From Candidatus Poribacteria bacterium (GTDB lineage: Bacteria > Poribacteria > WGA-4E > GCA-2687025), in the NCBI GenBank assembly GCA_028818695.1, contig JAPPNK010000026.1:135164-199163 (forward strand): DNA of 64,000 nucleotides, written 5' to 3'. The notes beneath the pieces were generated by a model. The model was not told the DNA's origin, did not search any database, and saw only the letters and a list, made by a program, of their open reading frames with translations. A program made the position numbers and the translations under genes. The first letter of the stretch is position 1, and every line of letters starts with the position of its first letter. Of this stretch, positions 1,682 to 56,078 are shown piece after piece.

Positions 1682-1849
1682 CCGACCTCATGCATAAAGT
1701 TGGGACATTTGAACGAATGATCGCTCTATTTATAGGGAAAAGGCGCTGCCAACCAGGCCGTCATTCCCGCGAAAGCGGGAATCCAGAGGCGCCCCAGAAA
1801 CCGTCTGCGTTCGCCCAGGCGAATGTCCCAACTAAAGCGCTAAGGTCAG
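1682..1849. mobile_element. MITE-like non-autonomous element, copy 1 (about 168 bp)
   Basis: Imperfect 25-29 bp terminal inverted repeats (CCGACCTCATGCATAAAGTTGGGACAT ... ATGTCCCAACTAAAGCGCTAAGGTCAG). Internal perfect palindrome ATTCCCGCGAAAGCGGGAAT. Near-identical copies at 29876-30042 and 54944-55131. Flanks GATGTT / GACGTT may be a degenerate 6-bp target-site duplication. Confidence 0.7.
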
Positions 1850-12433: not shown

Positions 12434-12700
12434 CTGACCTTTAAGGTTTCGTTGGGCATGTCGGTATGCGAACGCGGACAGCGTCTGTTGGACTCTGGAT
12501 TCCCGCTTTCGCGGGAATGGCGATTTGGAATGCGGAGGCTGTCTGGGAGAACTCTGGATTCCCGCTTTCGCGGGAATGGCGATTTGGAATGCGGAGGCTG
12601 TCTGGGAGAACTCTGGATTCCCGCTTTCGCGGGAATGACGCTCTGATTGACGGAGCCTTTTCCCATCCATAAAGGCTTTGTTCGTTCAACGGCTCCATCT
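12434..12700. repeat. degenerate MITE copy carrying three tandem 59-bp core sub-repeats
   Basis: Left end CTGACCTTTAAGGTTTCGTTGGGCATG resembles the MITE terminus. 3x tandem GGATTCCCGCTTTCGCGGGAATGGCGATTTGGAATGCGGAGGCTGTCTGGGAGAACTCT. Right end degenerate. Sits immediately upstream of the UPF0182 start. Confidence 0.7.
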
Positions 12701-13164
12701 TCAAACGGGAGGGCAGCCGAAAGGGTTTAGGAGGGCAGCGAGGGAGGCGGGCGCTCAATTTTTATGAACAGCGCTTAATTATGCGTCGCTTGCTAAAAGG
12801 TCCGCATGGCGCGAACCCGCATGAGGCGCAGAATCACGGACAGGCGGCGTTGGCACGCTTATTGCTAATAAAACGGCGTAAAACGAAAACAACAATACAG
12901 CGCGGCATGAAGACCGCGAAGGAGATACGACAATGCCTCGATTTCAATGCGCCTTCCCATACGAAAATGGGAACCAACCCAGATGCAGCCGGCGGCGTCC
13001 AAGCGGCAACGGAACCTGCCGCAAAACCCGCGCGCGCATCGAAACGGTTTATGAATTTGAAGCGCGCAACGCCGAGCAGCTCTACAAGTGGCTTGAAATG
13101 AGAGGCGCCCCCATACGCTCCATCTGCGACATCAAACCCGTGGAGAGGGAAGCGTCCTCTTAGT

Positions 13165-16512: not shown

Positions 16513-17408
16513 GAGATGCCCAATCGGCGTTTCTGCTCCTTCAACATCTTTTTCTGCCGCGCAACTCGTTCCGGCACAACGCGCTCTCTCGGCCGCGTCG
16601 GTTTAAAATCGAGCCGCTTGACGCCGAGTCCTTTCAGAACCGCCTTCTCAACAAGAGAGAAATCGTCCGGATTCTTTCGGTTAAAGTTCATCGGCTTCTT
16701 GAGCGCGACGGGCGGATTCGTGATGAAGCGCGCCCGTCCGGACGGGTTGCGCGACGCCGAATGGAGAACATACGGATGGATCAGAACGATGTCGCCTGCC
16801 AACCCCGTCAGCTCGGCAAAGTCGCTGCAGCGGCGGATCAGTTTGCCGAAGCCCGCCTCGGAGGGGAGCAGTCCTTCTGGATGTTGCGCGAGATAGCGGG
16901 CGATATGCTGGACGGAGTCGGCGGCGACGAAGGTTCCGCCGCTTTTCGGGAAAATGTCCGACCAGATGACGATGGTGAGCAGCCCTTGTTCAGGGCTGTC
17001 GAGAAAGTGGCGAAAGAAATCGCCGTCTTTGTGCCATCCGCTCATGTTGGGGGACGGGGGCTGCCATGGCTCGCCGTCGCCGATATTGAAATTGATGATA
17101 AAGCCGTCTCCGAGCGAGAAGTTTTGCGCGTTTTGGATGCGCTCTTCTCCGCCCATGAGGTCGCAGATCGCGTTCCATGCTCTTGGGGCGATGTCGGCGG
17201 CGCGCTTCCAATTCATGCCGGTGAGATGGACGCGCGGTTCCGCCCAGGTGTCGGGGTCGTAGGGGTCGTATCCGAGCCGCTTGAAGGCGAAGGCGCGCCA
17301 TTCTTCAGCCAGCTCGCGCGGGAATGCCTGGCGTATGACGATATGCCCGCGTTCTAGAAACTGCTGCGCCTGCTCCTGTGTGATTTCTCGATAAGGCTTT
17401 TGCGCCAT
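16509..17408 (-). CDS. phytanoyl-CoA dioxygenase (PhyH) family protein
   Basis: WHKD...H motifs; paralogue of 763..1656; 4-nt overlap with the downstream S9 peptidase gene. Confidence 0.8.
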   Translation of the reverse strand: MAQKPYREITQEQAQQFLERGHIVIRQAFPRELAEEWRAFAFKRLGYDPYDPDTWAEPRVHLTGMNWKRAADIAPRAWNAICDLMGGEERIQNAQNFSLGDGFIINFNIGDGEPWQPPSPNMSGWHKDGDFFRHFLDSPEQGLLTIVIWSDIFPKSGGTFVAADSVQHIARYLAQHPEGLLPSEAGFGKLIRRCSDFAELTGLAGDIVLIHPYVLHSASRNPSGRARFITNPPVALKKPMNFNRKNPDDFSLVEKAVLKGLGVKRLDFKPTRPRERVVPERVARQKKMLKEQKRRLGIS

Positions 17409-17496
17409 TATTTGTTCCTCGCCGGTGGTGCGTTTGTTTGGATTACGTTACAGCATTTTGGGTCGAGTTTCAAGAGCGGACGCTGACATGCTCTCA

Positions 17497-17520
17497 AGTT
17501 GTGACATTTGAACGGATAGG
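17497..17520. repeat. solo MITE terminal fragment
   Basis: AAGTTGTGACATTTGAACGGATAGG matches the MITE terminus AAGTTGGGACATTTGAACGAATGATCG. Confidence 0.4.
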
Positions 17521-21068: not shown

Positions 21069-21127
21069 GTTTTGGAATGCGGAGGCCGTCTAAGAGAACT
21101 CTAGATTCCCGCTTTCGCGGGAATGGC
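21069..21127. repeat. solo MITE core sub-repeat fragment
   Basis: TTTGGAATGCGGAGGCCGTCTAAGAGAACTCTAGATTCCCGCTTTCGCGGGAATGGC matches the 59-bp sub-repeat at 12480-12650. Confidence 0.55.
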
Positions 21128-24562: not shown

Positions 24563-27361
24563 TCAAAACCCATACTTTACGCGCCGCAGATGAAAAGCAT
24601 AGCCTCCTCCGTCCACCGTTTGAACGATGGCATTGCGAACGGCTGGCTCTTCAATAGCTCCGTCCTGCTCAACCCAGCCATGATTCGCGGTCGCTTCCAG
24701 CTGAATGACCTGATCGGCGTCCCCGTTTACAACGATGTTCGCGTTATGCGTTGCGATAATGATCTGTCGGCGGCCTTTTAGCCGCTTCAACGCCGGCAGG
24801 ATAGCGTCAAATAGAAATCGGTTGTCTATTTCGTCTTCGGGCTGGTCAATCACTAGAGGACGGTTGTCGTCCGTCTCCAACAGCAAGGAGAGCAAGAGGC
24901 TCACCCGTTTGCCTCCAGAGAGCTGATCCAAAGGACGGTATTTGTCTTCTTCTATCTTCGACTCCAATAGATAGCGATCTCCGCAGCGAATCGCCTTTAA
25001 CTCGCGCAGTTTCGAGCGGGTAAGATTCTCTCTAAACGTAGATTGCACAGCGCCGCTCATTCCGACAGACGCTAAATCATCGTTTTCAAAAGCTGCGATC
25101 AACTTGCCGGACGACGGCCGTTCTTTCTGATCGTTCCACCACCTCGTCACTCCCCGCTGATTTAGATTCCTCACAAAGCGGTCAAGAGGCAGCAAATCTC
25201 CCTCGTCAATGCGGCGGGCGGAAATCTGGCCTTCAAACTTTTCAGCAATCGCTTTGATCGCCCGGTCGAAGGCGCGCCGCTGCTCTTCCGCCAGATGTTT
25301 TCTTTCTTCCAGCAGCTTTTCAAGCAAGCTTTCCTCTTTGCGGCGCGTTTCCTGTATTTCACGAAATGCCGCCTCATAACTCTCTAAAAGAGTCGCTTGA
25401 CGGCTCAGCGCCTGAAACTCATCAATCTTGGAGCTGTCCATGCCTTTGGCCGCGAGCTTACGGTTCATATCGCCGCGAACATTCTGCTCATTCGTTTTCA
25501 GAACATCCATGATGGATTCAATGACAGCGTCGGCATTGGTCAGCTCATCCATCGCGTCGCGAATCGAAGCGGCGATGCTTTTCCAACGCGCGCGAAACGC
25601 CTCCGCCTGTTCCTCCACGCCGGCCGCCAACAGCAGATCCGCCAAAGCGCCGTCAATATCGGGCATGTCAATACCTTCGGCAGATTGCAGCGCGCTGTGG
25701 ATTGCTTCGGCAAGATCTTTGGACGCTTCCGCGGAGTCCCGCCAACGCCCCAAGTCCCGCGACGCCCGATGATACTCTTCAATGCCGGCTTCCGAAAAGG
25801 CATCCAAGGCATCGGCGGCGCGGCGGCAGCGCTCACAGGACTGCTCTGCATCTGCAGCTTCTTCATCAAGTTGATCAATCCTCTTGGCAGCATTGCGCAG
25901 CTCATCATCCATCCCGCGCAGCCGCTCATCCCGCACTTCAATTTCGGCCGCCTCGGCAGCTGCGAACCGAGCAAGAACCTCGTCGACCGCATCAGGTTCT
26001 TGAGCGAGTCTTTGAAGTTCATTCTGCGAGAAAAATACGGCAGGCCAGCGGTCAAAATGCTCTGCTGTTGGATCGCCGCCCTTAAGTTCTAACGCGACAT
26101 CAGCCGAGCCGCTGCCGAGAAATCGCTTATAGCCGCGAGATTCGATCTGGTTTTTCAGCTTCTCCATATCATTGCGCTGGTCGTCATCAGGATTATTGCC
26201 AGGCTTTACTTTAGGAAGGGGGGCTCCGATATGAACACGGAGGCCGTCAAGAAACGTGCTTTTACCGGTCATGCTGCCGCCAATGATGCATGTCAAATCG
26301 GGGTGAAAGTCGAAGCGCGTTCCCGAATCGCCGCCAAAGAACGAAGCTTTGCCTTTGACCGTGACCGATCTTAGCCAAGAGTGCTCGCGCGCTGTCTCAT
26401 CGGGCGAGTCTGAAATCTCGACCAGTTTTCCGCTCTCGCTGCGTTCATAAGCGATGCGTATCCGCGAATCGCCGGCGAGAAACGCTTGGCGCAGCGCTTC
26501 GATCCGCGGGCTGGCGAGCTTGAACCAAGTATATTGATTGCCAATTTCCTCAACCAAATTTGCGTCGCTGCAGTGGAACAACGCGTCACGGTACTTTTTC
26601 TTTAAATCATGGTCATTTGAGAACCGATGGTCTTCCAAGACATCTTCAGGAAGCTTTTTGCTGTTAAGGCCTAGACCCGTTAATTCGTCGTGCGGAAAGG
26701 TATCCCAGACTTGCGCTCTTTGCTCCTTTAAAAGGCCTTTCTTGGAAAAGATATGAGGGGCGAGCGCAATATAGCTCCACGGGTTATCTCTGTCATGAAA
26801 CTCACGTAGTTCTTTAAACGCTTCCTTTGCTCTATAGCTAGATATTTGAAGCTCATTGCTTTTCCAAGGTTGCCTGTTCTTCATGACAAGATCGAATGCG
26901 CTTAAATAGGCGTTGCGCCCGATTTCGGGGTCAAACAGAAAAAGCATATGCAGCCCGCCATGACCGTCATGAAGCGACGGCTCGAAGCCTGGGAACACGG
27001 CGTATATCTTTTCTCGGAACGGCTTGCCATCGTCGTCATCGCCTTCGTTCCACTCCTGCACGATCTGCCATACCGCGCTCATGTCGCCGTGATCGCTCAT
27101 GCGCGGTCGGTGCGGCGTTAGACCGAGTACGCGGACGCCCTTTTTCACGGCATTTTGTAGAAATATTCGAGCGTAAGCGCGAAGCTCATCCTCTGACCAG
27201 TCTGATGACGCATTGCAAGGCGGGTTAACGCCTTCCGGAACCTTGACCTGGCAGCCAGGCAGGTCGTCTATCGTATGGATTTGAAGATCCGCCTTGAACC
27301 ACCGCGCGCCAGGCACCTCCTCCCGCCAAAAGTCCGTTTCGTTCCGCTCGAAATCTGCCAT
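24563..27361 (-). CDS. fusion of N-terminal PHP-type phosphoesterase domain with SMC/Rad50-like ABC ATPase (coiled-coil)
   Basis: N-terminus ADLQIHTIDD...LGLTPH...FPGFEPS (PHP-like motifs). Walker A IIGGSMTGKST (about 26255-26285). Long coiled-coil. ABC signature LSGGKRVSL (about 24893-24925). Walker B/D-loop LVIDQPEDEID (about 24824-24856). H-loop IIATHN. Confidence 0.7.
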   Translation of the reverse strand: MADFERNETDFWREEVPGARWFKADLQIHTIDDLPGCQVKVPEGVNPPCNASSDWSEDELRAYARIFLQNAVKKGVRVLGLTPHRPRMSDHGDMSAVWQIVQEWNEGDDDDGKPFREKIYAVFPGFEPSLHDGHGGLHMLFLFDPEIGRNAYLSAFDLVMKNRQPWKSNELQISSYRAKEAFKELREFHDRDNPWSYIALAPHIFSKKGLLKEQRAQVWDTFPHDELTGLGLNSKKLPEDVLEDHRFSNDHDLKKKYRDALFHCSDANLVEEIGNQYTWFKLASPRIEALRQAFLAGDSRIRIAYERSESGKLVEISDSPDETAREHSWLRSVTVKGKASFFGGDSGTRFDFHPDLTCIIGGSMTGKSTFLDGLRVHIGAPLPKVKPGNNPDDDQRNDMEKLKNQIESRGYKRFLGSGSADVALELKGGDPTAEHFDRWPAVFFSQNELQRLAQEPDAVDEVLARFAAAEAAEIEVRDERLRGMDDELRNAAKRIDQLDEEAADAEQSCERCRRAADALDAFSEAGIEEYHRASRDLGRWRDSAEASKDLAEAIHSALQSAEGIDMPDIDGALADLLLAAGVEEQAEAFRARWKSIAASIRDAMDELTNADAVIESIMDVLKTNEQNVRGDMNRKLAAKGMDSSKIDEFQALSRQATLLESYEAAFREIQETRRKEESLLEKLLEERKHLAEEQRRAFDRAIKAIAEKFEGQISARRIDEGDLLPLDRFVRNLNQRGVTRWWNDQKERPSSGKLIAAFENDDLASVGMSGAVQSTFRENLTRSKLRELKAIRCGDRYLLESKIEEDKYRPLDQLSGGKRVSLLLSLLLETDDNRPLVIDQPEDEIDNRFLFDAILPALKRLKGRRQIIIATHNANIVVNGDADQVIQLEATANHGWVEQDGAIEEPAVRNAIVQTVDGGGYAFHLRRVKYGF

Positions 27362-27520
27362 AAAAACTCCTAAGTCCGCTGCTCAATCCTGCTCACGCGC
27401 AACAGCCCGACACCGCATTAAACTTGTATCCAATAAAGCCAGTTTGTCAAACTTATCTGCGCAAGCGTGAGCTTACAGGGAGGGAAGCGTCCATCCACAG
27501 CCCCGTCCCTCCGCTGCCTA

Positions 27521-28585
27521 TCAGGAAAGGCGCCACAGCCGGACGGCGTCGCAGTTCGTTCCCGCCGCGAGCGTCTTGCCGTCCGGCGAAAACGCGAAAT
27601 CATAGACCGTCAGCGTCATTTCTTCTATCTCGCGGAGCAGCTCCCCGCGCTCCACATTCCACAGCCGCGCCGCGTTGCCGTCGCTCCCGGTCGCCAGCGT
27701 CTTGCCGTCCGGCGAAAACGCCAGCGAAATCACCGCGTCTTTGTTGACGCCCCAAGCGACCGTCTTCGGCGACGGATTGGAGCCTGCAAAAGCCTCCAGC
27801 CGCTCGCCCGTGTCGACCTCCCACAGCAGCGCGGCGTTGTCGTTCCCGCCGCTCGCCAGCAGCGACCCGTCCGGCGAAAACGCGAGCGAGAGGACATCGT
27901 CCGTATGCCCCTTCAATGTTGCCGTCAACGCTTCGGTTTCGATGTCCCGCAACAGGACGGAGCGGTCATGTCCGCCGGCGGCGAGCGTTTTGCCGTCCGG
28001 CGACAAGGCGGCGGCGCCGTTTCCTTCAAAGGTTTTCAACAGCTCGGCGGTCTCAACATCCCACAGCCGAACAAGATTGTCGGCGGCGCCTGTGACGAGC
28101 GTTTTGCCGTCCGGAGAAAAAGCGAGCAGACCGACGGCGCTCTCATGCGGCAGGTTTGTCATCAGCTTCGGCTCCTCAATGCTCTGCTGTTGGACGCTCT
28201 GCCCCCTTATCTTTTCGGTCGTCCAAACGATGACAACCGGCTCATAGGCGTCGGAGTTGACGCTCCATAGATGGACCGCGCTGCCGTCCCCGCCGGAGGC
28301 GAGCGTCTTGCCGTCGGGCGAGAAGGCGACCGTCCGCACAGGTCCATGATGCGCCAGCGATCGGAGATGCGCCCCTGTGCCGGCGTCCCAAAGGCGAACC
28401 GTTCTGTCCCATCCGCCTGTCGCTAACAGCGTTCCGTCCGGCGAATACGCGACCGAGCAGATGTGGCTCGTATGTCCATGAACGGCGACTCCCTCAATAT
28501 AATGGGGAATATGGTACTTGCTTCGCTCAACCTGCCGAGGGCGCATCTTTTCAAGTATGATCGGGTTCATCCATCTCCCATTCAT
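27521..28585 (-). CDS. WD40 beta-propeller protein (paralogue a)
   Basis: 7 WD repeats (FSPDGKTLA.G..D..VRLWD); N-terminal YHIPHYIEG motif shared with paralogues b and c. Confidence 0.85.
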   Translation of the reverse strand: MNGRWMNPIILEKMRPRQVERSKYHIPHYIEGVAVHGHTSHICSVAYSPDGTLLATGGWDRTVRLWDAGTGAHLRSLAHHGPVRTVAFSPDGKTLASGGDGSAVHLWSVNSDAYEPVVIVWTTEKIRGQSVQQQSIEEPKLMTNLPHESAVGLLAFSPDGKTLVTGAADNLVRLWDVETAELLKTFEGNGAAALSPDGKTLAAGGHDRSVLLRDIETEALTATLKGHTDDVLSLAFSPDGSLLASGGNDNAALLWEVDTGERLEAFAGSNPSPKTVAWGVNKDAVISLAFSPDGKTLATGSDGNAARLWNVERGELLREIEEMTLTVYDFAFSPDGKTLAAGTNCDAVRLWRLS

Positions 28586-28740: not shown

Positions 28741-29784
28741 TCAGGACAGGTCCCACAGCTGGACGGTGTCATAATGCGTCCCCGCCGCAAGCGTCTTGCC
28801 GTCCGGCGAAAACGCGACATCATAGATTGTTAGCGTCATCCCCTCCAGCTCCCGAATCAGCTCCCGACGCTCCACATCCCAAAGCCGTATTGTGTTGCCG
28901 ATGCTGCCGGTTGCGAGCGTCTTGCCGTCCGGCGAAAACGCGACCGACTCAATCGAGTCCTTGCTGTCTTCCCATACGCGCGTCTTCGGCGACGGCTCCG
29001 ACACGCCGTCAAATGCCGCCAGCCTCTCGCCGCTTTCAATGTCCCACAGCAGGGCGGCGTTGTCCTCCCCGCCGCTGGCGAGCAGCTTTCCGTCCGGCGA
29101 AAAAGCGAGCGAGCAAACGCTGTCTGTATGCCCCTCAAAAGTTTTTGCCAGCTGTTCGGTTTCGATGTCCCACAACAGGACGGAGCGGTCATGTCCGCCG
29201 GCGGCGATCGTCCTGCCGTCCGGCGACAAGGCGGCTGCCCGATTTCCTTCAAAGGTTTTCAACAGCTCGGCGGTCTCGGCATCCCACAGGCGAACAAGGT
29301 TGTCGACGGCGCCTGTGACAAGCGTCTTGCCGTCGGGAGAAAAGGCGGCAGATCTCACCATGCCCCCATGCGGCAGCATTTTATGATGCTTGCGTTCTTC
29401 GAAGCTCTTCCGTTCGACGCGCCGCCCGTCCGGTTCTGTCGACCATGTGGTTGTGATGGAGCTCTCAACGGGTTCATAGTCGACGCTCCATAGCATGACC
29501 TCGTTTTCTTCGGAGCCTGCGGCAAGCGTCTTGCTGTCGGGAGAAAAGGCGAGCGTCCAGACGGACCCTTTCAGCGACGTTGAGCGAATTTGCGCCCCTG
29601 TGTCGGCGTCCCACAGGCGAACTGTCTTGTCCCATCCGCCGGTCGCCAGAAGCTTCCCGTCCGGCGAGAAGGCGACCGAGAAGATATGGCTGTCATGACC
29701 GCTGATGATAATTCCCTCAACATAATGCGGAATCTGGTAGTTTTTCGATTCCAGCTGTCGGGCGCGCATCTCTTGAAAAGCCAT
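28741..29784 (-). CDS. WD40 beta-propeller protein (paralogue b)
   Basis: First about 100 aa identical to paralogue c; 7 WD repeats. Confidence 0.85.
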   Translation of the reverse strand: MAFQEMRARQLESKNYQIPHYVEGIIISGHDSHIFSVAFSPDGKLLATGGWDKTVRLWDADTGAQIRSTSLKGSVWTLAFSPDSKTLAAGSEENEVMLWSVDYEPVESSITTTWSTEPDGRRVERKSFEERKHHKMLPHGGMVRSAAFSPDGKTLVTGAVDNLVRLWDAETAELLKTFEGNRAAALSPDGRTIAAGGHDRSVLLWDIETEQLAKTFEGHTDSVCSLAFSPDGKLLASGGEDNAALLWDIESGERLAAFDGVSEPSPKTRVWEDSKDSIESVAFSPDGKTLATGSIGNTIRLWDVERRELIRELEGMTLTIYDVAFSPDGKTLAAGTHYDTVQLWDLS

Positions 29785-29875
29785 GATATTTGTCCTCCGT
29801 TCATCTGAAAGCGATCAATTCGTATGCTTGTCTGTAGAAGATAACATGGAGGCGGAATCAAATCAAGCGGACGGG

Positions 29876-30042
29876 CTGACCTTAGCGCTTTAGTTGGGAC
29901 ATGTCGACATGCGAACGCGGACGTCGTCTGTTGGACTCTGGATTCCCGCTTTCGCGGGAATGACGGCCTGGTTGGCGGCGCCTGTTTCCCATAAATAGAG
30001 CGATCATTCGTTCAAATGTCCCAACTTTACGTATGAGGTCGG
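29876..30042. mobile_element. MITE-like element copy with target-site duplication
   Basis: Inverted orientation relative to copy 1; flanked by direct GGACGGG / GGACGGG. The paralogous site upstream of WD40-c (about 31196-31210) has a single GGACGGG directly followed by TTTCCGCCCC (empty site). Confidence 0.75.
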
Positions 30043-30069
30043 GACGGGTTTCTGCCCCTTCGCCGCCTG

Positions 30070-31110
30070 TCAGGACAGGTCCCACAGCTGGACGGTGTCG
30101 TAGTATGTCGCCGCCGCGAGCGTCTTGCCGTCTGGCGAAAATGCGACGTCATAGATTGTCAACGTCATCCCCTCCAGCTCTCGAAGCAGCTCCCTGCGCT
30201 CCACATCCCAAAGCCGTATCGTGTCGCCGGCGCCGGTCGCAAGCGTTTTGCTGTCCGGTGAAAATGCAAGCGAGCGGACATTGCCTCTGTAAATCCCCCA
30301 TTCGTCCTCCGTTGCCGACGACGGATCGGTTCCTTCAAAAGCCGCCAGCCGCTCGCCCGTCTCGGTCTCCCACAGCAGGGCGGCGTTGTCGTTCCCGCCT
30401 GACGCCAGCAGCCTTCCGTCCGGCGAGAACGCGAGCGAAAGGACCTCGTCCGTATGCCCCTTAAAAATTTTTGTCAGCTGTTCGGTTTCGATGTCCCACA
30501 ACAGGACGGAGCAGTCATGTCCGCCGGCGGCGATCGTCCTGCCGTCCGGCGACAAGGCGGCCGCCCGATTTCCTTCAAAGGTTTTCAACAGCTCAGCGGT
30601 CTCAACATCCCACAGCCGAACAAGGTTGTCGACGGCGCCTGTGACAAGCGTCTTGTTGTCGGGAGAAAAGGCGGCAGATCTCACCATGCCCCCATGCGGC
30701 AGCATTTCATAATGCTTTTGCGTTTCTCGAATCTCTTCCGTTTGACGCGCCGCCCGTCCGGTTCTGTCGATCACGGTTGTGACGGCGCGCCGAACGGCTT
30801 CATGGCTGACGCTCCATAGCATGACCTCGTTTTCTTCGGAGCCTGCGGCGAGCGTCTTGCTGTCGGGAGAGAAGGCGAGCGTCCAGACCGACCCTTTCAG
30901 CGACGTTGAACGAATTTGCGCTCCTGTGTCGGCGTCCCACAGGCGAACCGTCTTGTCCCATCCGCCGGTCGCCAGAAGCTTCCCGTCCGGCGAGAAGGCG
31001 ACCGAGAAGATATGGCTGTCATGACCGCTGATGATAATTCCCTCAACATAATGCGGAATCTGGTAGTTTTTCGATTCCAGCTGTCGGGCGCGCATCTCTT
31101 GAAAAGCCAT
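30070..31110 (-). CDS. WD40 beta-propeller protein (paralogue c)
   Basis: 7 WD repeats; near-identical to b over the N-terminal third; upstream region (31111-31200) near-identical to that of b (29785-29875). Confidence 0.85.
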   Translation of the reverse strand: MAFQEMRARQLESKNYQIPHYVEGIIISGHDSHIFSVAFSPDGKLLATGGWDKTVRLWDADTGAQIRSTSLKGSVWTLAFSPDSKTLAAGSEENEVMLWSVSHEAVRRAVTTVIDRTGRAARQTEEIRETQKHYEMLPHGGMVRSAAFSPDNKTLVTGAVDNLVRLWDVETAELLKTFEGNRAAALSPDGRTIAAGGHDCSVLLWDIETEQLTKIFKGHTDEVLSLAFSPDGRLLASGGNDNAALLWETETGERLAAFEGTDPSSATEDEWGIYRGNVRSLAFSPDSKTLATGAGDTIRLWDVERRELLRELEGMTLTIYDVAFSPDGKTLAAATYYDTVQLWDLS

Positions 31111-31313
31111 GATTTTTGTCCTCCGTTCATCTGAAAGCGGTCAATTTGTATGCTTGTCTGTAGAAGATAACACGGAGACGGAATCGAGTCAAACGGACGG
31201 GTTTCCGCCCCGCCCTTGGTCTGAGCGGCGGATGTTGACACGCATGCTGAACGGCGCCATAGTGTTTCGAATCAGCGCATACGCAGCATTGAACTTTGTA
31301 AGGAGCGCAGCCA

Positions 31314-32354
31314 ATGTGGACAGACCTTTCAAACCTTTATCTTGACCGAGACGCCGAGTCGCGCTCGTTGACCGCCGAAAACCCGACCGGAGCCGTCGGA
31401 AAAGGCGCGATGGACGACCCAGGCGGACACGGACCCGCCCGCGAACTGGGCGTCGGATGGAAAGTGACCCCCTGCCTTCAACTGAAAGCGGGCGAAACCG
31501 CGACGCTCATGAACAACGACGGACCGGGCGTCGTCCGCCACATCTGGATCACCTTCCGCGAATCGCATTACAGGCATCTCATCCTGCGCATCTACTGGGA
31601 CGGGGACGACCAGCCCTCCGTCGAAACCCCCCTCGGCGACTTCATGTGCAACGCATGGAACGCCCGCCAGAACATCCTCTCCATTCCCATGAACGTCAAC
31701 CCGTCCGGCGGAATGAACTGCTACTTTCCGATGCCGTTCCGCAAACATGCCAAGATCACCGTTGAAAACGATTCGACGGAAGATCTCAGCCACCTCTTTT
31801 ACACGATCAACTACACGCTGGAATCGGTCCCCGACGACGCGCTCTACTTCCACGCGCAGTGGCGGCGCAGCAACCCGCTCCCCTACGGCGAGGAGTATCT
31901 CATGGCGGACGGCATCGAAGGGCGCGGGCAGTATGTCGGAACCTTCATGGCGTGGCAGCAGAACAACGCCGGCTGGTGGGGCGAAGGCGAAATCAAAATG
32001 TATCTGGACGGCGACGACCCGCACCCGACCATCTGCGGCACCGGGACGGAGGATTACTTCGGCGGCGCATGGTGCTTCGGCGCTAGTTTCAGCGCCCCGT
32101 ACCTCGGCTTTGACCAAGTCCGTGGACGTTCGGGCGAGGTCGGCGCGCGGATGACGCTTTACAGGTTCCACGCCCTGGACCCCGTCTATTTCAAGAAAAG
32201 CCTGCGGGTAACGATGCAGGCGCTCGGCTGGCGCTCGCAGGGGCGGTTCCTTCCGCTTCAAGACGACATCTCATCGGTCGTGTACTGGTACCAGACGCTG
32301 CCGCATGCGCCGCTTCCGCCGCTCCCCGACCGCAACAGCAGAGAAATCATCTAA
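31314..32354 (+). CDS. DUF2961 (glycoside hydrolase family 172-like) protein
   Basis: Conserved WGEGEIKMYLDGD, GTGTEDYFGGAW segments typical of DUF2961. Confidence 0.7.
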   Translation: MWTDLSNLYLDRDAESRSLTAENPTGAVGKGAMDDPGGHGPARELGVGWKVTPCLQLKAGETATLMNNDGPGVVRHIWITFRESHYRHLILRIYWDGDDQPSVETPLGDFMCNAWNARQNILSIPMNVNPSGGMNCYFPMPFRKHAKITVENDSTEDLSHLFYTINYTLESVPDDALYFHAQWRRSNPLPYGEEYLMADGIEGRGQYVGTFMAWQQNNAGWWGEGEIKMYLDGDDPHPTICGTGTEDYFGGAWCFGASFSAPYLGFDQVRGRSGEVGARMTLYRFHALDPVYFKKSLRVTMQALGWRSQGRFLPLQDDISSVVYWYQTLPHAPLPPLPDRNSREII

Positions 32355-54934: not shown

Positions 54935-54943
54935 TTGATCGCA

Positions 54944-55131
54944 TTCCCTATGCTGAAAGTTGGGACCGTTGAACGACCAAAGCCTTTATTCATGGGAAAA
55001 AGGCGCCGCCAACCAAGCCGTCATTCCCGCGCAAGCCAGATCCCCGTGAAAACGGGGAGGGAATCTGGAGACGCCGCAGAAACCGTCCGCATCCGCCAGG
55101 CGGAATTTCCCAACTAAAGCGCTAAGGTCAG
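54944..55131. mobile_element. MITE-like element copy (with extra nested hairpin)
   Basis: Termini ...TGCTGAAAGTTGGGACCGTT ... AATTTCCCAACTAAAGCGCTAAGGTCAG. Core ATTCCCGCGCAAGCCAGATCCCCGTGAAAACGGGGAGGGAAT. Abuts the truncated TolB-like frame. Confidence 0.7.
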
Positions 55132-55205: not shown

Positions 55206-56078
55206 ATGGAAGAAGCCTACCGACAGCATCTTGTGAACGGGGAGCGGGCGGGCGCGCGGTATGTGCTGAACGCGCCGCGCATCGTCCCTTTGGGCGCCGC
55301 CGGCGACCAGCTCGCCAAGCGCGCCGGCAGCTCCTTAGAGTTCATCGACCGGCGCGAATACCAACCCGGCGACGACCTGCGCGCCATCGACTGGAGCGGA
55401 TTCGCCCGAAGCGACAAGCTGATTGTGAAACTGTACCGCGACGAGGTCTCCCCCCATGCCGACATCATCCTGGACGGCTCCCGCTCCATGAACCTAGAAG
55501 GGACGCGCAAGGCGGAAGCGGCGCTCGGTTTGACCGCGGCGTTTGCCGCCGCCTCCTTCAACGCCGGCTACTCCGCCTCGGCGTGGATCGCCGCGGACGG
55601 GTACCGCCCCGTCGAAAACGGCTCCTCCCGCCCTTCCATATGGGACGGCATCGACTTTGAATATACAGGCAGCCCCGCCGATTCGTTTCGGCGCGCCGCC
55701 CCAAGATGGCGTCCCTACGGCATTCGAATACTCATCAGCGACCTGCTCTGGATCGGCGACCCGATGGAGACGCTGAGCCGCATCGCCGAGCGGGCGTCCG
55801 CGGTGGTCGTCGTTCAAATGCTCGCCGAAAGCGACATCGCAACGCCGGAGCGCGGCAATGTGCGCTTTGTCGACTCTGAAACGGAGGAGATGCAGGAGAT
55901 CTTTTTGGACGCGGGAGCTCTGGCGCGCTATCGGAACGCCCTTGCGCGTCATCAGGAGCGCTGGCATACTGCTTGCCGTCAGGCGGGCGCCGTCATGACA
56001 ACAGCGACAGCCGAAGAAACCGCCTCCGAATGGAAACTGGACGCTCTCGTCAAATCGGAGGTTCTCCAGGTCGCATAA
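55206..56078 (+). CDS. DUF58 (vWA-like, MoxR-associated) protein
   Basis: Hallmark AGSSLEFIDRREYQPGDDLRAIDW segment of DUF58. Confidence 0.85.
   Translation: MEEAYRQHLVNGERAGARYVLNAPRIVPLGAAGDQLAKRAGSSLEFIDRREYQPGDDLRAIDWSGFARSDKLIVKLYRDEVSPHADIILDGSRSMNLEGTRKAEAALGLTAAFAAASFNAGYSASAWIAADGYRPVENGSSRPSIWDGIDFEYTGSPADSFRRAAPRWRPYGIRILISDLLWIGDPMETLSRIAERASAVVVVQMLAESDIATPERGNVRFVDSETEEMQEIFLDAGALARYRNALARHQERWHTACRQAGAVMTTATAEETASEWKLDALVKSEVLQVA

Follow-up and report, generated by a model that had tools for sequence, protein, structure and literature searches.

A polymorphic miniature element, probably of IS4 type, beside the promoter-like site of a WD40 gene in Candidatus Poribacteria

Introduction

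[quoted passage not shown] They are present in dozens to hundreds of intergenic copies, often just upstream of genes (PMC10969869; PMC6382973). Here we describe an element alike in these respects at positions 29876-30042 of a 64,000-nt stretch of the Candidatus Poribacteria contig JAPPNK010000026.1 (the window; coordinates are window positions unless a locus is named). It lies between WD40-c and WD40-b, two of three tandem WD40 genes. Our analysis indicates that it is very probably an IS4-type MITE that was mobilised in trans, was inserted after the duplication of the two genes and is polymorphic among strains, with targeting that appears to be anchored on TTGA(C/A) throughout its family. In contrast to bacterial MITEs in general (Correia, MITEAba12), a matching autonomous insertion sequence (IS) was identified. 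Correia elements duplicate TA and bring their own promoters (PMC10969869), whereas at our locus the two promoter hexamers come from the target, and the empty site has them as well.

The IS which shares its ends with the MITE, hereafter the partner IS, is closest to those subgroups of the IS4 family that have 5'-CT ends (IS10, IS50 and ISPepr1). Like them, it has a single open reading frame (ORF), a DDE_Tnp_1 domain, a complete YREK signature and 5'-CT ends, and its 1267 bp fall within the length range of the IS10 subgroup (PMC2266710). The 6-9 bp duplications of the MITE family overlap with the 7-9 bp of the ISPepr1, IS50 and IS10 subgroups but extend lower (PMC2266710). Differences from the IS4 family were also found. 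The partner transposase is short (321 aa) and scores under every NCBIfam IS4 cut-off, the candidate D-to-E spacing of 99 residues is at the lower edge of the range, and in a single MITE family the duplication can be anything from 6 to 9 bp long. The apparent rule of insertion 3 nt from TTGA(C/A) is not among the IS4 subgroup target preferences listed in PMC2266710.

Some bacterial elements are known to choose targets by short repeated motifs. IS1397 and ISKpn1 insert into repetitive extragenic palindromic (REP) sequences (PMC1525189), and the IS1202 group inserts at a distance of 5 bp to the sites of dif/pdif that XerC binds (PMC10132070). The present family resembles them in its fixed small distance to a short recurring chromosomal motif with a cellular function, but the motif here is a -35-like TTGA(C/A), the orientation is random, and the duplication length floats while one edge is fixed. 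In yeasts, the retroelements Ty3 and Tf1 insert at RNA polymerase III start sites and at polymerase II promoters, respectively, guided by contacts between integrase and transcription factors. The outcome is alike, namely a fixed position upstream of genes where damage is minimal, but our element is a DDE cut-and-paste element and there is no evidence of a protein tether. A full-text literature search of incomplete coverage returned no paper on MITEs in Poribacteria, and no bacterial insertion sequence described as targeting the region just upstream of -35 boxes.

Results and discussion

Structure of the element and its target duplication

An earlier note on this stretch had reported a MITE with terminal repeats at 29876-30042, an exact direct repeat around it and an empty paralogous site, and each of these observations was borne out. 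The features concerned are as follows.

29876-30042, plus strand: MITE copy, 166/167 bp, without credible ORF; identical in locus L082
29876-29902, plus strand: L-type terminal inverted repeat CTGACCTTAGCGCTTTAGTTGGGACAT, facing the WD40-b promoter and matching end A of the 1267-bp IS
30016-30042, minus strand: R-type terminal inverted repeat, minus-strand reading CCGACCTCATACGTAAAGTTGGGACAT, matching end B of the IS
29942-29961, no strand assigned: central G+C hairpin module ATTCCCGC-TTTC-GCGGGAAT, an inverted repeat
29869-29875, no strand assigned: left copy of the target-site duplication, GGACGGG (6-bp reading: GACGGG, 29870-29875)
30042-30048, no strand assigned: right copy of the target-site duplication, GGACGGG (6-bp reading: GACGGG, 30043-30048)
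31195-31201, no strand assigned: paralogous empty site with one GGACGGG upstream of WD40-c, empty in all four strains
29838-29866, minus strand: sigma-70-type promoter-like site of WD40-b, TTGATT (29866-29861), 17-nt spacer, TATCTT (29843-29838)
31164-31192, minus strand: promoter-like site of WD40-c, TTGACT, 17-nt spacer, TATCTT, plus a TG extension; picked up by the promoter scan
28741-29784, minus strand: WD40-b coding sequence (CDS), 347 aa, seven WD40 repeats
30070-31110, minus strand: WD40-c CDS, 346 aa, with its stop codon 21 nt away from the duplicated target

The terminal inverted repeats are imperfect, align over 27 nt and share a perfect 11-nt core, AGTTGGGACAT, at 29892-29902 and 30016-30026. 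With at most one mismatch allowed, this core occurs 6 times in the window where 0.49 occurrences are expected, and none of 100 shuffles reached 6. The sole ORF overlapping the element is a 67-aa GTG ORF that runs out of it. On the plus strand, the sequence across the insertion reads ...AAGCGGACGGG / CTGACCTTAGCG...ATGAGGTCG / GGACGGGTTTCTGCCCC. The two exact copies of GGACGGG are 173 nt apart and flush with the MITE. The family consensus ends are CTGACCT...AGGTCAG, whereas this copy ends in ...AGGTCGG, and thus it may be taken either as an element of 166 bp whose duplication has 7 bp (GGACGGG) or as one of 167 bp whose duplication has 6 bp (GACGGG). The earlier note had given the element as 29876-30042 together with a GGACGGG of about 7 bp, and the one-base overlap between the two is due to this ambiguity at the boundary. 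Its target duplication stands; the length is 6 or 7 bp at this copy and ranges from 6 to 9 bp in the family.

Empty sites and insertion polymorphism

Upstream of WD40-c, the sequence AACGGACGGGTTTCCGCCCC contains no element. When the two regions were aligned, as the earlier note had proposed, the flanks proved homologous: from the site to the start codon, WD40-b and WD40-c agree at 83 of 91 nt. On the far side the homology covers just 10 nt (9 identical), because the boundary of the tandem duplication falls there.

Insertion polymorphism in related strains, which had also been suggested as a check, was found. Three contigs of metagenome assembly ERZ25069412, L082 (18x coverage), L083 (12x) and L084 (33x), code for precisely the WD40-b protein of the window, and around the WD40 cluster they are about 98% identical to one another and to the window. 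For WD40-c, a search for the exact protein found no record. In L082 the b-c spacer holds the identical MITE at the same position and in the same orientation, and in L084 the MITE is likewise in place, with a 9-nt deletion in the central hairpin. The b-c spacer of L083 lacks the MITE. Its orthologous empty site reads GGAAACCCGTCCGCTTGAC. As found, the L083 spacer is GGGGCGGAAACC [779-bp unrelated element] CGGAAACCCGTCCGCTTGACTTG; after removal of the 779-bp element and one copy of its 8-bp duplication it becomes GGGGCGGAAACCCGTCCGCTTGAC, with a single CCCGTCC and no footprint. The insertion is polymorphic among co-occurring strains, and this orthologous empty site is more decisive for mobility than the paralogous one. 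The polymorphism represents ongoing mobile-element variation among co-occurring sponge-symbiont strains, in a eukaryote-like WD40 gene family.

The 779-bp element (L083:2125-2903) has perfect 21-bp terminal repeats, GGTAGTACCTGAAGGCGATGG, and an 8-bp duplication, CGGAAACC. Its 165-aa ORF gave a weak match to an IS1 transposase (22.9 bits against a cut-off of 24.1). The insertion point overlaps the MITE target by 2 nt, and the same promoter-upstream spot was therefore struck by two different elements.

Further orthologous filled and empty pairs were sought between the window and OY762492.1, a 3.95-Mb chromosome of a Candidatus Poribacteria metagenome-assembled genome, and there was no clean pair among the two examined. 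L061 against window ~60 kb was rejected as the region upstream of the gene is not homologous, and L022 against window copy 2 (described below) was rejected as L022 has a rearranged partial copy at the site.

The MITE family

The copy search proposed in the earlier note also succeeded. In a scan of species-representative genomes with the terminal-repeat pattern, the matches listed lie without exception in a single assembly (OY762492.1 and a short contig), which contains at least 81 8-kb stretches with copies. The same pattern gave 0 hits in a scan of metagenome contigs. BLAST of the MITE against the collected loci and the window returned 203 hits, including 47 distinct full-length copies in two size classes, 166-169 bp and 187-190 bp. 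CTGACCT is found at the end of 36 of the 47 and AGGTCAG in 33. Flush, perfect direct repeats of 6-9 bp flank 20 of the 47, compared with ~0.56 expected when flanks were re-paired; their lengths are 6 bp (7 copies), 7 bp (7), 8 bp (4) and 9 bp (2). Copies are 70-89% identical to the query at 29876-30042, so the family is not young.

Within the window there are four copies bearing terminal repeats and one solo end. Besides the copy described above, the inventory is as follows, together with one isolated module.

1682-1849, minus strand: second full-length copy (window copy 2), 88.7% identical; duplication GACGTT(C)/GATGTT(C) with one mismatch; L end 9 nt from TTGACA
12434-12735, plus strand: expanded variant copy with three tandem 59-bp hairpin-module units and degenerate terminal repeats
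54943-55131, minus strand: degenerate full-length copy, ~70% identical; L end 13 nt from TTGACA-17-TATGGT, upstream of a gene starting at 55206
17483-17520, plus strand: solo fragment of an R-type end, located 9 nt from TTGAAA-17-TAACGT and upstream of a minus-strand gene starting at 17408
21105-21124, no strand assigned: isolated hairpin module

The interior of the copies consists of the G+C hairpin ATTCCCGC-N4-GCGGGAAT followed by a hypervariable stretch, which in some copies is expanded to tandem repeats with periods of 22, 50, 59 and 79 bp. A MITE of Porphyromonas gingivalis with a minisatellite is alike in having an interior tandem repeat of variable copy number (PMC4596501). However, its sequence, host and IS family are unrelated, and the unit here is built on the G+C hairpin. 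Examples of the arrays, which take in the module together with adjoining sequence, are 59 bp x3 (window 12434-12735), 79 bp in ~10 units (L076:3635-4394), 50 bp (L060:3423-3603) and 22 bp in at least 9 units (L054:~530-716). Possibly the module is a REP-like repeat in its own right which the MITE has captured. "Half elements" in the BLAST table were considered as a separate family and rejected, as they are mostly full or truncated copies with a tandem-repeat-expanded interior.

The L ends of the window copies at 29876, 1849 and 55131 all carry the variant CTGACCTTAGCGCTTTAG, whereas most OY762492.1 copies have CTGACCT(T/C)ACGTCTT(T/A)AG instead. This variant suggests lineage-specific amplification of a subfamily.

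The partner insertion sequence

A transposase acting in trans from elsewhere in the genome had been predicted in the earlier note. The prediction held in part: an IS with the same ends as the MITE was found in a related genome (L034:1322-2588) and in metagenomes, not in the window. This IS is 1267 bp long and has a single long ORF, the protein of which matches Pfam DDE_Tnp_1 (PF01609, E=1.8e-13). The top NCBIfam hits of the transposase are IS4-family models, all under their curated cut-offs, and the IS thus appears IS4-like but falls in no curated equivalog. Beyond L034, copies are present at L085 and L087-L089, and in five independent IS copies the ORF is a single one of 321 aa without frameshift. 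Homologues of 321 aa, with 94% and 88% identity, occur on short contigs of other metagenomes and are flanked by the same terminal repeats. In L034 the transposase gene has lost its stop codon, and the frame continues beyond the element (371 aa, compared with 321 aa). The idea that the TGA of the target TTGA serves as the stop codon, as seen in L034, was rejected, for the normal 321-aa protein ends inside the IS.

YREK, Y-(2)-R-(3)-E-(6)-K including the catalytic glutamate, is the hallmark of the IS4 family (PMC2266710). The signature is present in the partner transposase as YRRRMTIEESFKDLK, residues 260-274 (Y260-x2-R263-x3-E267-x6-K274). D87, D168 and E267 are the candidate catalytic residues; with the aspartates assigned by eye, the spacings are 81 and 99, and the criterion used was D(60-110)D(100-150)E. 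Searches with the transposase gave no match among plasmids (tblastn) or solved structures (sequence comparison).

The two ends of the IS are not alike; the L end of the MITE matches one of them and its R end the other. Similarity extends to ~36 nt on the L side and ~30 nt on the R side, and the interiors beyond are unrelated. The match of both ends, including the difference between L and R and the L-side similarity to ~36 nt, is strong evidence that the MITE derives from the 1267-bp IS. The 321-aa transposase is the likely mobiliser of the MITE.

L087 and L088 have the left flank of the IS in common but not the right one, and this suggests that recombination among copies of the IS has rearranged the sequences.

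Insertion next to TTGA(C/A) and promoter-like sites

What the earlier note had missed is that the insertion at WD40-b adjoins a -35 hexamer, and that this is a pattern of the whole family. The flank at the filled locus is cccgtc-cgc-TTGATT-17 nt-TATCTT, and from there it is 53 nt to the start codon of WD40-b; the hexamer TTGATT is 2-3 nt from the duplication. The site scores 8/12 in the promoter scan, below the threshold of that tool. Because the empty paralog has TTGACT-17-TATCTT, both hexamers are part of the target and not of the MITE, which replaces everything upstream of about position -38 at WD40-b. The insertion may affect WD40-b expression.

An alignment was made of the sequences flanking 176 distinct element ends. 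In 44 of them TCAA is at -14/-13 from the end and in 62 within -16 to -12, with 1-2 cases per other position; 35% of the ends lie 8-12 nt from a TTGA. Read outward, the 62 anchored flanks give the consensus TTGACA-17-TAnnnT, the T, A and T of the -10 each being present in 41. In 36 of the 62 (58%) a TAnnnT is present at 16-18 spacing; for the TTGA sites of this DNA as a whole the figure is 2.5% (p=1.7e-41). Of the anchored ends, 53 of 58 (91%) are followed within 330 nt by the start of an outward ORF of 100 aa or more, as are 71 of 104 other ends (p=8.5e-4). In the window, four of the five members bearing terminal repeats (three copies and the solo end) abut a TTGA motif, and three of these four precede a gene in the correct orientation.

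Subtracting the duplication length from the distance to TTGA gives 3 in 11 of the 16 full-length copies which have both a perfect duplication and a nearby TTGA, and this register holds for duplications of 6, 7, 8 and 9 bp. Relative to TTGA, the staggered cut has one constant edge and one that floats. The element end facing TTGA is L in ~8 cases and R in 7, that is, orientation is random. The same register was observed outside promoters, namely at hairpin repeats (TTGAAAAGG, and CCCCCTTGAAAAGGGG where a -10 element is lacking) and at the TTGACA between convergent genes which adjoins window copy 2 (1850-1865). This recurrence at non-promoter sites argues for direct sequence recognition. As for occupancy, 13 of 37 complete promoter-like sites are occupied, against 10 of 348 other TTGACA sites, most of which are probably inside genes.

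A second abundant repeat, the hairpin CCCCCTTGAAAAGGGGG, occurs in many loci (e.g., L047, L048, L014, L027, L038, L039 and L073). Its word CCTTTTCAAGG was counted 87 times on both strands in ~0.7 Mb. It often follows GCGTCCGATTCCC and is repeatedly a MITE target.

In L084 (~2900-2960; the 33x strain) 4 nt are deleted from the -35 box adjoining the MITE (CGC----TTCGATT), and this filled allele may have a decaying WD40-b promoter.

Proposed mechanism and alternative explanations

We propose that the MITE is a non-autonomous, deletion-type derivative of the 1.27-kb IS4-family IS. The 321-aa DDE transposase would bind the 27-nt terminal repeats (tip CTGACCT, core AGTTGGGACAT) and mobilise the MITE in trans by cut-and-paste movement, with staggered target cuts leaving the 6-9-bp duplications. 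The transpososome would pick targets 3 nt from TTGA(C/A). As -35 boxes would be the main intergenic source of TTGA(C/A) and intragenic insertions would be purged, copies would pile up just upstream of promoters; surviving copies thus appear to gather upstream of sigma-70-type -35 boxes because target choice seems to be anchored on TTGA(C/A). The single insertion at WD40-b, an ordinary MITE event, is well supported, and strong statistics argue for the promoter-proximal register as a family trait.

Several observations weigh against this proposal. IS4-family duplications are usually ~7-13 bp depending on the subgroup (PMC2266710), and those of 6-9 bp here are shorter and more variable. With the best NCBIfam model, NF033591, the transposase reaches 77.7 bits, and the cut-off is 152. 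The transposase gene is absent from the window and from the other collected loci and was found only in related genomes, and the full-length IS copies examined (L034, L085, L087 and L088) have no target duplication. Outside its own allele the MITE has no near-identical copy, and its current activity is unproven. With respect to targeting, 20 of the 47 full-length copies have no TTGA near either end, and the occupancy of promoter sites could also be produced by selection against intragenic insertions, which makes the targeting step correlative.

These last two points lead to a different account, in which the MITE inserts at random and its promoter position arises by purging, copies upstream of promoters being tolerated or even favoured as an UP-like or regulator-binding module. 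The rarity of occupied non-promoter TTGACA sites is in its favour, given that most such sites would be intragenic, as are the copies without TTGA. However, selection alone would hardly yield a register of 3 nt between duplication edge and TTGA that is kept for duplication lengths from 6 to 9 bp, this register recurs at the hairpin repeats and at the TTGACA between convergent genes, and the random orientation argues against a directional regulatory role. We therefore consider random insertion unlikely, and recognition of TTGA(C/A) by the transpososome probably the better explanation of the register.

A more far-reaching version of target recognition would make the IS4-like transposase the first bacterial DDE transposase which homes to sigma-70 promoters, docking on the -35 directly or via RNA polymerase/sigma and cutting with a 3-nt offset. 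We hold this to be quite unlikely. If it were true, the element would colonise the space upstream of promoters genome-wide and could rewire their upstream regulatory input. Any genuine target recognition would have wider implications. It would represent a safe-harbour strategy comparable to that of Ty3 and Tf1 of yeasts and a natural tool for promoter-proximal integration, and it would give hundreds of mapped promoters in an uncultivated phylum. It would also imply a systematic replacement by these MITEs of whatever DNA lies upstream of -38 in many genes, which could have regulatory effects.

It is improbable that the transcription machinery mediates the targeting, with the RNA polymerase holoenzyme or -35-bound sigma region 4 recruiting the transpososome in the manner of a Ty3/TFIIIB counterpart. 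Such recruitment would agree with the correctly spaced -10 element at 58% of the TTGA-adjacent ends, with the right orientation of the downstream gene at 91%, and with the peak of occupancy at complete promoter-like sites. Yet the register is the same at TTGA without a -10 element, in hairpin repeats and between convergent genes, there is no evidence for any protein-protein contact, and the enrichment of complete promoters is equally well explained by selection against intragenic insertions.

History of the insertion

According to the proposed history, the MITE inserted after the tandem duplication of WD40-b and WD40-c, between the WD40-c stop codon and the WD40-b promoter. One insertion into the b-c spacer, after which the allele spread among strains by recombination, is the simplest history. 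In this respect the post-duplication insertion claimed in the earlier note stands, and the word "recent" is a relative one. The insertion is common to at least 3 strain-level lineages that are ~98% identical to each other at the locus, and the nearest other copy in the window has 88.7% identity. Moreover, "after the duplication" has little dating power, because the near-identical first 300 nt of WD40-b and WD40-c suggest gene conversion.

Could the MITE be older than the b/c duplication, or ancestral in all strains, with the empty sites produced by precise deletion between the 7-bp repeats or by gene conversion? At several SNPs and a 4-nt indel of the short intergenic stretch, L083 sides with L084, which is filled. 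Recombination has made a mosaic of the region, in which the tree of the four strains does not resolve the history of the empty allele, and the homogenised look of the first 300 nt of WD40-b and WD40-c points the same way. But such a history requires at least two independent and perfectly precise losses, the site upstream of WD40-c is empty in 4 of 4 strains, and the L083 sequence upstream of WD40-b differs from its own sequence upstream of WD40-c, which means that no conversion occurred recently. A single insertion followed by homologous recombination of the allele is the simpler account, and an early insertion is very unlikely.

Hairpins and RNA structure

That no transposase-driven element is involved, and that we are looking at a REP/BIME-like palindrome spread by a RAYT-type tyrosine transposase or by recombination, or at a structured RNA gene, is extremely unlikely, for although the central ATTCCCGC-N4-GCGGGAAT hairpin also occurs alone and in tandem arrays and the RNA fold is somewhat more stable than shuffled sequence, the 27-nt terminal repeats match those of a DDE insertion sequence, flush 6-9-bp duplications are a hallmark of DDE transposition and not of REP, and no Rfam family matches the window. 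The presence of terminal repeats and duplications places the element outside REP/BIME (no search aimed at RAYT genes was made).

The scan of the whole window against Rfam led us to reject a known structured RNA. The terminal repeats give the RNA of the MITE a hairpin fold whose stability exceeds that of shuffled sequences by a modest margin only (z=-2.8). No terminator-like site was found in 29700-31400, and with a fold of this z-score only, an intrinsic terminator at the MITE was rejected too. The MITE would add a 27-bp-stem hairpin to any read-through transcript from WD40-c.

The WD40 locus and its relatives

WD40-a, -b and -c are three tandem genes, all on the minus strand, and the 285-nt spacer between c and b houses the MITE. 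The remaining gene is listed here.

27521-28585, minus strand: WD40-a CDS, 354 aa, the more divergent paralog with 77-78% nucleotide identity to b and c

WD40-b and WD40-c are 88.9% identical at the nucleotide level overall. Differences are distributed as a mosaic, with 6 in the first 300 nt of the coding sequence and up to 40 per 100 nt farther along. The 5' ends of the two genes have probably been homogenised, and the mosaic suggests gene conversion of 5' ends and promoters between the tandem paralogs.

Segments shared between the window and OY762492.1 are 82-94% identical, mostly ~90%. Near the WD40 cluster, the differences among the window, L082, L083 and L084 form mosaic patterns as well, which indicates recombination among the four strains. 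Homology of the window to L082, L083 and L084 ends downstream of WD40-a (~24563-27500), where those three carry a glyoxalase-like gene. In the window this region encodes a 932-aa protein with matches to the ATPase families AAA_21, AAA_23 and SMC_N. It appears to be a strain-variable island and could be defence-related.

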